Shown here: positions 3,894 to 44,503 of the stretch, one piece after another | How positions within the stretch are numbered: position 1 is the first letter of the stretch | Layout: the number at the start of each line of letters is the position of its first letter | Assembly (NCBI GenBank): GCA_937903135.1 | Contig: CALDAH010000016.1 | Span: forward strand, 774 to 64,773 | Direction: 5' to 3' | DNA length: 64,000 nt | DNA from: an uncultured Alphaproteobacteria bacterium | GTDB lineage: Bacteria; Pseudomonadota; Alphaproteobacteria; Rs-D84 | Position numbers and translations under genes: made by a program | The notes under the pieces: model-generated | Told to the model about the DNA's origin: nothing | Database searches by the model: none | What the model saw: the letters and a program-made list of their open reading frames with translations, nothing else

Positions 3894-3898
3894 TCATA

Positions 3899-3924
3899 GC
3901 CGCCATATGGCGGCTGTTTTTTTA
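3899..3924 (+). terminator. Intrinsic terminator of gpmI
   Basis: AGCCGCC-ATAT-GGCGGCT followed by GTTTTTTT. Confidence 0.75.
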
Positions 3925-3983: not shown

Positions 3984-4012
3984 TTGTATTTATTCCCCAA
4001 ATATTATATAAT
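3984..4012 (+). promoter_or_regulatory. Sigma70-like promoter TTGTAT-17 nt-TATAAT (leader A)
   Basis: TTGTAT 3984-3989, 17-nt spacer, TATAAT 4007-4012. The same hexamers and spacing recur at 19914-19942. Confidence 0.55.
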
Positions 4013-4018
4013 CCTGGC

Positions 4019-4264
4019 GTCGGCGGGTGTTCTGCTGATGGGGTGTAACGATCCTGCATACGCATTAGAAATAATAGGCAGTGTTTTTAATACTGCCCGG
4101 TTGTTTTTCTGATGAAAACTCCTGATCCCAATGACCGGGTCAGGAGGGTTGCTTAATAACCGTATCATAGGGGAATCAGCAACACAATTCGTATGATTGT
4201 CGTTAACCTCCTGACCACCATATGTTTTGGTGGTTTTTATATACAGTTATCAGGAGGATAAATA
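4019..4264 (+). promoter_or_regulatory. Structured 5' leader A: hairpin P1 / SD mimic / anti-SD / intrinsic terminator upstream of a Cys-rich gene
   Basis: H0 4077-4097. P1 is CTCCTGATCC 4119-4128 paired with GGGTCAGGAG 4137-4146. CCTCCTGACC 4207-4216 is complementary to 4138-4147. Terminator ACCACCA/TGGTGGT+TTTTT at 4214-4238. The SD TCAGGAGG 4250-4257 is identical to 4140-4147. Confidence 0.55.
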
Positions 4265-4900
4265 ATGAAACGATATTTGCTGTTAACGTTTTCCGGGATG
4301 ATGGTTATATGCCCCCATGGATTGTTCGCGGGTGCGCGAATTGAATGCAATGGCGGTATAACATATTCAACGTGCGCGGAGTCCAACCCTGATAATCCGA
4401 CCAGTTGCAATGTAGTAAATTCGGCCGAGATGGTTATATACGACGCAGCGCAAAAATGCGCGGCAATCAGTACCGTTTGGTACAAAGGGCGCGGAATTAT
4501 GAACTGTGATCGCTGCATAGATGGCGCGGTTAAGGTCAATGTCAACTTTACCCTGGATACGGGATGCCAGGCATATTATGATTATTGTAAATGTCAGCGG
4601 ACGACGACGTGTTCGGCCGGGACGTGGTATTCGGCCGGCGCAGGATATGAACAACGAACAAATCAATACGACTTATGCGGGACATGTAAAACCAAAACGG
4701 AATACAGATGTGCCGCCGGATATTGGGGCAGCCCATCCAGTGCCACGTCCGGATGCACGGCGTGTGATAAACTTGGCGGGCATGGGACATCTGCGGCCGG
4801 GTCAACGTCGCGAACAAAATGCTATGTCCCGGCCGGTGCTGCGATAACTGATAATATCGGGACGTATAAATTTTCAAATAACTGCTATTACAGCAATTAA
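4265..4900 (+). CDS. Cysteine-rich secreted protein (211 aa), family with C-terminal GTYxF/YxxxC motif
   Basis: Signal-like MKRYLLLTFSGMMVICPHGLFAG. Strong SD AGGAGG. CxxC/GYW modules (CSAGTWYSAG, CAAGYWGSPSSATSGCTACD). C-terminus TDNIGTYKFSNNCYYSN. Confidence 0.75.
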   Translation: MKRYLLLTFSGMMVICPHGLFAGARIECNGGITYSTCAESNPDNPTSCNVVNSAEMVIYDAAQKCAAISTVWYKGRGIMNCDRCIDGAVKVNVNFTLDTGCQAYYDYCKCQRTTTCSAGTWYSAGAGYEQRTNQYDLCGTCKTKTEYRCAAGYWGSPSSATSGCTACDKLGGHGTSAAGSTSRTKCYVPAGAAITDNIGTYKFSNNCYYSN

Positions 4901-19913: not shown

Positions 19914-19942
19914 TTGTATTTATTTTCAATATAAATTATAAT
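19914..19942 (+). promoter_or_regulatory. Sigma70-like promoter TTGTAT-17 nt-TATAAT (leader B)
   Basis: TTGTAT 19914-19919, 17-nt spacer starting TTATT as in leader A, TATAAT 19937-19942. Confidence 0.55.
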
Positions 19943-19948
19943 TATCCC

Positions 19949-20220
19949 GAATCCAAAGGGATATTGGGTTCGGGGTCGTCAAAAAGCCCATAATTAAAGA
20001 CAGTGTATAAAAAACACTGTATCCGCGGTACATTCCTGGCGCGGTTGCGCCATTTATTGTACGCCCCGATCGTAACGGTCGGGGAGCTGTTGGCTATAAC
20101 ACAGGGTATGTTTTTACCCAAAGGCCATCAGGGTCATTTCTTTAATTATGATTTTTTGAACTCCCCGACCGCCAAACCGTTTGGCGGTTGTTTTATTGGT
20201 AAAAAAAAAAGGGGGAAGCG
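19949..20220 (+). promoter_or_regulatory. Structured 5' leader B, homologous to leader A
   Basis: H0 ACAGTGT/ACACTGT 20000-20020. P1 is CCCCGATCG 20064-20072 paired with CGGTCGGGG 20076-20084. CTCCCCGACCG 20161-20171 is perfectly complementary to 20076-20086. Terminator ACCGCCAAA/TTTGGCGGT+TGTTTT at 20168-20195. SD GGGGGA 20211-20216. Confidence 0.55.
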
Positions 20221-20667
20221 TTGAAACATTATTTATTATTTTCATTAACGGCGGTAATCTGTTTAATATTATCACCCGCGATTGCCGTAACGCAATGTGT
20301 GCCAAGCATGTATAACATGACAAAATGCAACATCGGAACTGGAAATAACAACAACTCATGGAGTGCATCATGTTCGGATGGCGGCTCTCTTTCTATCTTT
20401 CTGTATGGGTCGGCGAATTGTTCGTCGGATTCATCTTCCCGCGGATATGGATATAAAGATATGCTAACGATATCCAGTACGCTTACAAATAACAAATACT
20501 GCTGGTGCAAACTTGATCGGCCATACCCGACGCGCTGGTTATATCTATATGACGCCAGCACCGGGGAAATATGCGCAAAAAATTGTTCAGAGAAATGCGC
20601 AACCACCCTCCAAACCCTTCAGGGATATCGCCAAGCATTTGCGCATACGTCCGCCCTGTATCGTTAA
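20221..20667 (+). CDS. Cysteine-rich secreted protein (148 aa), TTG start
   Basis: GGGGGA SD 4 nt before TTG. Signal-like MKHYLLFSLTAVICLILSPAIA. Multiple Cys (YCWCKLD..., CAKNCSEKCA). Confidence 0.65.
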   Translation: MKHYLLFSLTAVICLILSPAIAVTQCVPSMYNMTKCNIGTGNNNNSWSASCSDGGSLSIFLYGSANCSSDSSSRGYGYKDMLTISSTLTNNKYCWCKLDRPYPTRWLYLYDASTGEICAKNCSEKCATTLQTLQGYRQAFAHTSALYR

Positions 20668-36188: not shown

Positions 36189-36259
36189 GCGTGGTTGCCA
36201 GAGTATTATATAGAAGTCGCGGATAAAATGCAAGCATGAAAAAAACAAAATTCCTGCCG

Positions 36260-36286
36260 ATAAAAAAATCCCCCGATCGGGGGATT
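36260..36286 (-). terminator. Intrinsic terminator of rubrerythrin gene
   Basis: ATCCCCC-GATC-GGGGGAT with a T-run on the minus strand (plus-strand AAAAAAA 36262-36268). Confidence 0.75.
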
Positions 36287-38297: not shown

Positions 38298-38312
38298 TTA
38301 TAACTTAAAAAC

Positions 38313-38341
38313 TTGCAATTTCCAGCAGGAATATTTATAAT
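38313..38341 (+). promoter_or_regulatory. Sigma70-like promoter TTGCAA-17 nt-TATAAT of the tmRNA gene
   Basis: TTGCAA 38313-38318, 17-nt spacer, TATAAT 38336-38341. Confidence 0.55.
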
Positions 38342-38384
38342 ATTTATGTCACATTAGTGATGATGATTCTGAATCCGTTGTGCA

Positions 38385-38662
38385 ATAGTCATTTTGGACC
38401 CGGGGGCGGTACCCGGCACCTCCACCAATAAAACATACGGGGGTGTACCAGATTCGACAGATGATAAAAGACAAATTGGGTGAATCCGACATGGTGTCGT
38501 TAAAAACCGACTAAAAACTGAATGGCGATAGAATCGCTGCGAACGACAATGTTCGCTTTGCAATGGCTGCCTAATACGGCATCGGATATAACTGGCAATT
38601 GTTGGTTGTATTCACTTTAAGCTATTGCGGGGTGCGCCCGAGCCCGGCAACAGAAATCGGGT
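38385..38662 (+). ncRNA. ssrA: Two-piece (circularly permuted) tmRNA: acceptor piece, then coding piece; ends approximate
   Basis: The acceptor piece ends ...GGACCCGGGGGCGGTACCCGGCACCTCCACCA at 38427. The coding piece starts GGGGGTGTACCAGATTCGACAG at 38439. Its GGGGGTG pairs with CACCTCC, giving G3-U70. Tag ORF GCG AAC GAC AAT GTT CGC TTT GCA ATG GCT GCC TAA encodes ANDNVRFAMAA (38539-38574). GCAATAG (about 38391) pairs with CTATTGC (38622-38628). Confidence 0.85.
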
Positions 38663-38694
38663 ACTTATTTAAAATATAATAAAAAGGCATAAAA

Positions 38695-44323: not shown

Positions 44324-44426
44324 AGTCTATATATTTGCATAACATCTGATAAAAATAAAGAAGATATTAAAAATTTGCGAATTTTTGACTTGCAACAAAA
44401 CATAAATAATATATAATGCTGCCTGT

Positions 44427-44503
44427 GGGTTAGTAGCTCAGTTGGTTAGAGCGGAGCGCTCATAACGCTTTGGTCGTGGGTTCAAGTCCTACCTAACCCA
44501 CCA
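44427..44503 (+). tRNA. tRNA with CAU anticodon (elongator Met or lysidine-modified Ile2; not distinguishable here)
   Basis: GGGTTAGTAGCTCAGTTGGTTAGAGCGGAGCGCTCATAACGCTTTGGTCGTGGGTTCAAGTCCTACCTAACCCACCA. Anticodon loop CTCATAA, encoded CCA. Confidence 0.9.

Follow-up and report, generated by a model that had tools for sequence, protein, structure and literature searches.

In the pyr attenuators of Bacillus subtilis (PyrR), anti-antiterminator, antiterminator and terminator hairpins follow one another and are mutually exclusive. The pbuE (ydhL) adenine ON-riboswitch is a three-way junction in which the 3' strand of the closing helix overlaps the 5' arm of the terminator, and the trp-type attenuators of Escherichia coli pass through alternative 1:2, 2:3 and 3:4 pairings that end in an intrinsic terminator. 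The 'cuckoo'/CcsR small RNAs (sRNAs) of α-proteobacteria, with anti-Shine-Dalgarno (anti-SD) motifs in CCUCCUCCC loops, are short, trans-acting and located downstream of DUF1127 genes. In the expression platform of the E. coli thiM thiamine pyrophosphate (TPP) riboswitch, an SD-like anti-anti-SD and the real SD compete for one anti-SD, which switches translation (PMC2018614). Here we analyze a 64,000-nucleotide (nt) stretch of contig CALDAH010000016.1 from an uncultured α-proteobacterium of the Rs-D84 lineage (the window), in which an untranslated leader, leader A (approximately 4019-4264), and a second copy, module B, are probably cis-acting switch-type leader RNAs of one multi-copy family.

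Like the thiM platform, the leaders contain a chain of SD, anti-SD and anti-anti-SD (PMC2018614). However, they have no TPP aptamer match in Rfam, a fourth segment, c, competes for the SD mimic, and the anti-SD is joined to an intrinsic terminator, by which transcription would be gated as well. As in the pyr leaders, the first hairpin of the 3' half (P1) sequesters the 5' strand of the antiterminator and would let the terminator form, but the PyrR-binding consensus is absent (0/79 copies), the P1 loop is variable, SD sequestration is added, and the host is an α-proteobacterium with a reduced genome. The proposed ON fold resembles pbuE in being a three-way junction (closing helix, P2, and P3) that overlaps the terminator 5' arm, and differs from it in the lack of a purine-aptamer match and of any sign of a kissing interaction, in the moderate conservation of the junction, and in the extra competitor segment c. 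The alternative-pairing logic is shared with the trp-type leaders, whereas no conserved leader peptide is present. Finally, the leaders and the cuckoo/CcsR sRNAs are both multi-copy α-proteobacterial RNAs with CCUCC anti-SD motifs and intrinsic terminators, but the motif of the leaders lies in the stems of a 225-nt RNA directly upstream of the target gene and not in hairpin loops, and no Rfam sRNA model matches them.

Pairing segments of leader A

The pairing relay of the leader has four segments (Table 1). Segment c is the 5' arm of P1, segment d mimics the SD, segment e combines the anti-SD with the foot of the terminator, and segment f is the real SD. Leader A was checked by reading the window and by an independent repeat search. 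The P1 helix consists of 10 base pairs (bp) between CTCCTGATCC (4119-4128) and GGGTCAGGAG (4137-4146), of which 90% are Watson-Crick and the tenth is G-U. A second copy of its 5' arm, CCTCCTGACC (4207-4216), is 100% complementary to GGTCAGGAGG (4138-4147), and TCAGGAGG is present twice, as the mimic (4140-4147) and as the real SD (4250-4257) of the gene starting with the ATG at 4265. The core arms of the terminator, ACCACCA (4214-4220) and TGGTGGT (4228-4234), are followed by a T run and were also detected by a terminator scan; positions 4213-4216 of segment e double as the foot of its stem. All these elements, together with hairpin H0 at 4077-4097 (arms 4077-4085 and 4089-4097) and the promoter TTGTAT-17-TATAAT at 3984-4012, had been proposed in a first-pass annotation of the window, and each was found in the sequence as described. 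The anti-SD:SD helix is longer than that annotation saw, with approximately 11 bp (UCAACCUCCUG with CAGGAGAUUGA) and the terminator hairpin inside. This genome has further predicted intrinsic terminators, for example at 3896-3917 after gpmI.

Table 1. Positions of the leader, promoter and gene features in the window
Feature	Position	Strand	Sequence or description
Promoter of leader A	3984..4012	+	TTGTAT 3984-3989, 17-nt spacer, TATAAT 4007-4012
S1, hairpin at 5' terminus	4019..4039	+	GUCGGCGG / GUGUU loop / CUGCUGAU; minimum free energy (MFE) fold
S2, short hairpin	4040..4054	+	GGGU 4041-4044 with AUCC 4051-4054
S3, long-range helix around S4	4063..4114	+	4063-4071 with 4106-4114; MFE fold
S4 (= H0), GC hairpin, then U-rich run	4077..4097	+	Arms 4077-4085 with 4089-4097
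Segment c, P1 5' arm, first anti-SD copy	4119..4128	+	CUCCUGAUCC; competes with e for d
Segment d, P1 3' arm and SD mimic	4137..4148	+	GGGUCAGGAGGG; partner c (P1) or e (antiterminator/anti-sequestor)
P2 hairpin	4148..4183	+	GUUGCU with AGCAAC; AU-rich loop with family-invariant AUA
P3 hairpin	4184..4200	+	ACAAUU with GAUUGU
Segment e, anti-SD	4203..4216	+	UUAACCUCCUGACC; 4207-4216 pairs with d, 4203-4214 with the SD region
Intrinsic terminator	4213..4238	+	Stem GACCACCA / UGGUGGUU, 7-nt loop, U tract; terminator scan
Segment f, real SD and start	4250..4267	+	UCAGGAGG 4250-4257; ATG 4265-4267
Gene A	4265..4900	+	211 amino acids, signal peptide, Cys-rich, C-terminus ...CYYSN
Promoter of module B	19914..19942	+	TTGTAT-17-TATAAT
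Module B 3' half, type B1	20061..20194	+	Covariance-model match, 33.6 bits, E ~1e-7; copy absent from seed
Module B segment c	20064-20072	+	CCCCGAUCG
Module B segment d	20077-20086	+	GGUCGGGGAG; P2 and P3 come next
Module B segment e	20161-20170	+	CUCCCCGACC
Module B terminator	20166-20190	+	Followed by U run; terminator scan
Module B SD, start and gene B	20211..20667	+	SD GGGGGAAG 20211-20218; TTG start 20221

A covariance model (R1) was built from a seed of the 3' halves of 46 leaders (types A, C, and D; Table 2), which includes leader A and omits module B. In the window it matches leader A (89 bits) and module B (33.6 bits); the next match, with E = 0.15, is noise, and blastn together with R1 gives exactly two leader copies, A and B. 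The first-pass annotation had placed a homologous module at 19914-20220, which the R1 match at 20061-20194 bears out: module B was recognized by a model whose seed lacks it, and it is thus a true homolog. The MFE of both leaders is far below that of shuffled sequences (z = -6.6 for leader A and -5.0 for module B, with 0/200 shuffles equal in each case).

Co-variation of the segments

Comparison of the leaders revealed that c, d, e, and f co-vary type by type, as a chain (Table 2). In particular, the cognate c:d duplex has an energy of -13.8 kcal/mol versus -9.8 for non-cognate combinations, and the corresponding values are -20.2 versus -14.3 for d:e and -8.8 versus -6.6 for e:f (0/20000 group permutations for each of the three, over 14 sequence types). 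The d:e duplex is both the strongest and the most specific, with a median number of equally good non-cognate partners of 0. By alignment columns this helix is 94-95% paired under a sub-optimal alignment. When all types are aligned with MAFFT, a one-nucleotide deletion of types C and D is misplaced, so that column counts understate d:e pairing; per-sequence duplex energies were used instead.

Table 2. Sequences of the four segments in each leader type
Type	c	d	e	f
A	CUCCUGA	GGUCAGGAGG	CCUCCUGACC	CAGGAG
B1	CCCCGA	GGUCGGGGAG	CUCCCCGACC	GGGG
B2	AUCCCGAC	GGUCGGGAAG	CUUCCCGACC	GGGA or GGAAGU
C	CUCCAAC	GGUUGGAGG	CCUCCAACC	GGAGG
D	CUCCUGUC	GGGCAGGAGG	CCUCCUGCC	AGGAG

The d:e helix shares 3-4 nt with the terminator foot and excludes both P1 and the complete terminator. 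Its outer pairs (GGUC:GACC, GGUU:AACC, GGC:GCC) lie beyond the SD core, and the SD constraint therefore does not account for them. In one leader (L016), a variant of d is matched by a compensating change in e and not in c. Evolution has thus maintained a helix that competes with the terminator for a strand, as befits an antiterminator, and P1 sequesters the 5' strand of this antiterminator in a type-specific way, as befits an anti-antiterminator. Similarly, e is complementary to the SD of the gene and the upstream d to e, and a G+C-rich hairpin followed by a U tract, the sequence form of an intrinsic terminator, is present in both leader A and module B. The first-pass annotation had read leader A as a combined terminator/antiterminator and SD-sequestration switch, and this topology is supported by the covariation, by the exclusive d:e helix, by the type-specific duplexes, and by the close energies of the folds.

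Conserved structure of the leader RNA

In the 46 sequences of the 3' half (P1, P2, P3, and the terminator), 95.3% of alignment cells are standard pairs and two-sided changes are observed at 14 of 26 pairs; neither 500 column shuffles nor slid registers yielded anything near these values. P1 (c:d) is 97.8% paired, with two-sided changes at 4/7 pairs, and all five P2 pairs show such changes. P3 is 99% paired, its ACAAU/AUUGU being exchanged for CUAU/AUAG and, in type B, for UCAU/AUGA. The terminator stem is 96.5% paired, with an AU-to-GC exchange, and its U tract is nearly invariant.

The 5' domain, in which S3 encloses S4 and is preceded by S1 and S2, is 95.0% paired, with two-sided changes at 19 of 27 pairs, a combination matched by 0/500 shuffles. 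Compensatory changes in S1 affect 7/9 pairs, and 99.4% of its cells are paired. S2 has the family consensus GRGG..CCYC and forms helix 2 (98% paired, GC/AU/GU exchange at one pair). S3 corresponds to family helices 3 and 4 (93% and 84% paired, two-sided changes at 8/9 pairs), and S4 to helix 5 (91%). With both the 5' part and the 3' half structured, the approximately 225 nt from the transcription start to the U tract constitute one conserved eight-helix RNA. The first-pass annotation listed the elements correctly and missed the conservation of the whole leader, including H0 and the 5' domain; likewise, its two copies are real, but the multi-copy family tied to a family of secreted-protein genes escaped it.

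The leader is conserved more strongly than the genes downstream: the median pairwise identity is 80% in the 3' half, 71% in the 5' domain, and 60% in the coding sequence, against a baseline of 57%. P1, P2, P3, and the terminator are universal across types, whereas the 5' domain differs by type, being shorter in types C and D and lacking S1 and S2 in one leader (L064). The P2 loop varies from 11 to 37 nt, the P3 loop from 5 to 8 nt, and the P1 loop in both length and sequence. The only loop nucleotides invariant in all types are the AUA of the P2 loop.

Three minor features were observed within the leader. S4 was scored as terminator-like by the terminator scan in both copies (4077-4108 and 20037-20062). 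Its U run, which is conserved in types A and B, is at the same time the 3' strand of S3, and S4 with this run could be an early site of pausing or termination. An A tract complementary to the terminator U tract is often found downstream (UUUUUC..GAAAAA or UUUUGUU..AACAAAA, for example in L065, L048, and L059). The resulting hairpin between the terminator and the SD is marginal (mean -1.3 versus -0.4 kcal/mol in shuffles) and is weak in leader A (4235-4249); it may compact the SD-masking junction. Finally, a 14-codon open reading frame (ORF), MKTPDPNDRVRRVA, spans P1 at 4113-4157. Lacking both an SD and conservation across the family, it is probably a chance occurrence.

Distribution of the leaders

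Model R1 detects 79 copies in 80 genome loci of uncultured Rs-D84/Candidatus Enterousia, some of them in flanks before other genes. An exact-pattern scan of metagenomes, chosen without reference to any protein, gave 87 matching DNA stretches, including human-gut assemblies and a 935-kb contig; the 80 of these that were listed contain 84 copies. The search for related leaders thus yielded at least 163 further copies outside the window, and structure-preserving two-sided changes are present among them. In approximately 160 copies, the leader has the same orientation as, and lies 20-45 nt upstream of, an ORF whose SD matches the e segment of the leader. Among the loci of gene A homologs, about 60 of 80 have the same leader directly upstream of the gene. 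A single genome holds at least 6-8 copies, as counted in a biased sample.

Types A, B1, B2, C, and D coexist in single genomes and recur across metagenome-assembled genomes (MAGs); CARVLU01, for instance, holds types A, B2, C, and D. The types are thus older than the divergence of these genomes. The same MAG (MGBC118324; the identifier suggests mouse-gut origin) contains two complete leader units in tandem (L054:2039-2537, minus strand), each with its own TATAAT, S1, S2, c/d/e segments, and terminator, and with a compensating d/e variant, GGUUGGAGAG with AUCUCCAACC.

Folding energies and the proposed switch

In 74 of 78 leaders, d:e is part of the MFE structure of a transcript that extends only as far as the terminator 5' arm. 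Once this transcript also includes the 3' arm, 44 leaders fold into P1 plus the terminator and 33 keep d:e; at full length, with the SD region included, P1 is found in 48/75 and d:e in 27/75. In the full-length MFE structures the SD window is 70% paired on average, and the SD pairs with e in 38 of 75 leaders. The full-length MFE structure of leader A is the fold with P1, which we term OFF. At the decision point the two folds are near-equal in energy, which a switch needs and a static untranslated region (UTR) does not.

These data suggest the following scheme. Transcription would start at strong promoters of the housekeeping type, upstream of genes that encode secreted Cys-rich proteins. In the OFF fold, c and d would form P1, and e would be available for the terminator; in any transcript that reads through, e would also pair with f and mask the ribosome-binding site. 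In the ON fold, d and e would close a three-way junction with P2 and P3, so that the terminator foot is removed and the SD is free. P1 would form first, and the emerging e would then invade it, starting at the two or three nucleotides of d that are not paired by c. If d:e lasted until the polymerase had passed the U tract, transcription would go on with the SD free; if P1 held or re-formed, the terminator would be completed, and any read-through RNA would have its SD masked by e.

The balance between the folds is presumably set by an effector. The ON junction would, at our best guess, be locked by a ligand or a trans-acting factor, a choice favored by the universal core P1-P2-P3-terminator and by the invariant AUA of the P2 loop. 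An effector that instead stabilizes P1, for example via the adjacent 5' domain, is less likely, and purely kinetic control is possible. The P2 loop and the 5' domain can be named only as candidates for the sensor.

We estimate the probability that leader A and module B are cis-acting switch-type leaders of one family at roughly 0.7. Several points weigh against this reading. The 14 sequence types stem from few independent events in evolution, and members of one type are closely related to each other. Termination, read-through and switching are events that we infer from sequence. Rfam and motif searches identified no effector, ligand pocket or protein-binding consensus, and the PyrR, TRAP, T-box, boxA, and ops motifs are absent in 79/79 copies. 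The merely moderate conservation of the junction nucleotides in the ON fold speaks against a small-molecule aptamer of the classical kind. Within the 5' domain, no type-specific partner of segment c exists (1678 of 5000 permutations). Finally, the tandem units of CARVLU01 have no recognizable gene downstream, the second one running into the 3' end of a convergent gene. Not all copies can therefore work in cis, and these two either stand alone in the manner of sRNAs or are leaders that lost their gene recently. As to the other segments, d likewise has no type-specific partner in the 5' domain (4107 of 5000 permutations), and the weak signal of e against this domain probably comes from the G-rich S2 arms.

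Alternative explanations

Instead of acting as independent cis switches only, the leaders could belong to an RNA network coded by type, which we regard as doubtful. A terminated leader of approximately 220 nt would expose a type-specific anti-SD, and its mimic could invade the nascent leaders of paralogs of the same type. Such a network would mean leader-leader and leader-mRNA pairing with types A, B1, B2, C, and D as insulated channels, and in a genome below 1 Mb that has few regulators, the expression of dozens of secreted-protein genes would be coordinated or mutually exclusive, as in antigenic variation.

It is also unlikely that the leader is primarily a small-RNA gene, whose ~220-nt product acts in trans through its single-stranded anti-SD (UCAACCUCCUG) on the SDs of same-type paralogs, adjacency to a gene being secondary. 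Each leader does have a strong promoter and a conserved terminator of its own, as a trans-acting sRNA has; discrete types occur within single genomes and are common to different genomes; the anti-SD:SD match is type-specific; and the two tandem copies without a downstream gene keep compensating d and e. Nevertheless, the constant orientation and spacing of some 160 copies relative to an ORF with an e-matching SD point to cis action, and competition among c, d, and e makes sense only inside one molecule. Trans action and cis attenuation are mutually compatible, and the leader may have an sRNA role alongside cis control.

We likewise give little credence to a static 5' UTR, in which a single fold would serve mRNA stability or processing and a fixed damping of expression free of regulation, and the likeness of c and e would be a relic of internal duplication. 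Hairpin S1 at the very 5' end is typical of stabilizing UTRs, no effector was found in the searches described above, and the OFF fold is the full-length MFE structure of leader A. On the other hand, the duplex kept most strongly and specifically is d:e, which is incompatible with P1 plus the terminator; the d variant of L016 is compensated in e and not in c; and in most copies the two folds differ little in energy.

An RNA thermometer, or another purely physical sensor in which the SD:anti-SD helix melts with temperature, is very improbable: the SD is indeed sequestered by an imperfect helix, but the conserved terminator with its U tract and the three-way competition would be unnecessary, the hosts live in homeothermic guts, and the Rfam thermometer models give no match. 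Ribosome-mediated attenuation of the trp type, in which translation of a leader peptide over c would select the 1:2 or the 2:3 pairing, can hardly be credited, since the trp-like 1:2 / 2:3 / 3:4 layout and the ATG at 4113 that opens the 14-codon ORF over P1 are contradicted by the lack of an SD before this ATG, by the lack of a conserved leader ORF (an SD-preceded start falls in the same 5-nt bin in at most 8/78 leaders), and by loop lengths that change by steps that are not multiples of three.

Promoters

Transcription of leader A would start near 4019. The promoters of leader A and module B share the identical 12-mer CTTGTATTTATT, and the TATAAT box is in register across an alignment of 40 homologous leaders; the pattern conserved family-wide is CTTGYAT-N17-TATAAT. 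A generic promoter scan omits the promoter of leader A because its -35 hexamer agrees with TTGACA at only 3/6 positions. The same layout, CTTGCA..N17..TATAAT with an AT-rich stretch upstream, was observed upstream of two tRNA genes in the window (36190-36270, minus strand; 44350-44430, plus strand). This suggests that the leaders use what is probably the strong housekeeping promoter type of this lineage.

Genes downstream of the leaders and their hosts

A sequence search of Pfam, NCBIfam and PDB found no relatives of the gene A product. Its AlphaFold2 model is β-rich, with a mean predicted local distance difference test (pLDDT) score of 79 and values above 85 for residues 60-210, and comparison of the model with PDB by Foldseek gave no match at E up to 0.001. 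This protein and homologs P0001-P0027 form a family whose members carry a signal peptide and contain 7-11% Cys; the N-terminal half is variable and the C-terminal part, YRCAAGYYG...TSGCT...CYYSN, is conserved. The 148-amino-acid product of gene B is likewise Cys-rich and has a signal peptide; no homology to the gene A product is detectable in its sequence. Among the complete downstream ORFs of the metagenome sample, 62/69 have a signal-peptide-like N-terminus and 60/69 contain at least 4% Cys; many terminate in ...CYYSN.

All homologs of the gene A protein are found in uncultured gut α-proteobacteria (labeled Candidatus Enterousia, Rickettsiales, or Alphaproteobacteria bacterium), with many paralogs per genome. 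Candidatus Enterousia has been placed in the order Rs-D84, with genomes under ~1 Mb and animal guts as habitat (PMC12306168). The window has a G+C content of 45% and also contains, at 38309-38665, a two-piece (permuted) α-proteobacterial tmRNA gene, which scores 155.7 bits against RF01849 and 124.7 bits against RF04321.

A new RNA family and its possible role

Rfam 15 gives no match in the region at the gathering score, and at E up to 10 only spurious partial matches of 14-19 bits appear, compared with cut-offs of 39-102 bits. A T-box riboswitch was rejected, its core motif being found in 0/79 copies and no Rfam model matching. The first-pass annotation had recognized no known riboswitch, T-box or ROSE element, and both kinds of search agree with it. 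The literature searched on Enterousia, Rs-D84, α-proteobacterial anti-SD attenuators, and SD mimics contains no description of this RNA. With no Rfam match, the hallmarks of TPP, purine, and T-box elements missing, and no published description, the leaders appear to constitute a genuine new cis-regulatory RNA family, in which the known logic of a terminator/antiterminator combined with SD sequestration would be realized in a new variant.

For RNA biology, the family would add a large, well-supported structured-RNA class that is new and missing from Rfam, with a relay of four segments that is unusually explicit in coupling termination to SD masking, and its natural orthogonal variants could be design templates. 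It would be an orphan switch. The regulated proteins are themselves uncharacterized in fold and function. The Rs-D84/Candidatus Enterousia bacteria are uncultured symbionts of the gut, and genomes below 1 Mb leave them scant room for regulators. Given the many copies per genome, each before a gene for a secreted Cys-rich protein, the leader is probably the main device by which these bacteria control display and secretion, and the interaction of the Rs-D84 group with a host or partner becomes directly testable.

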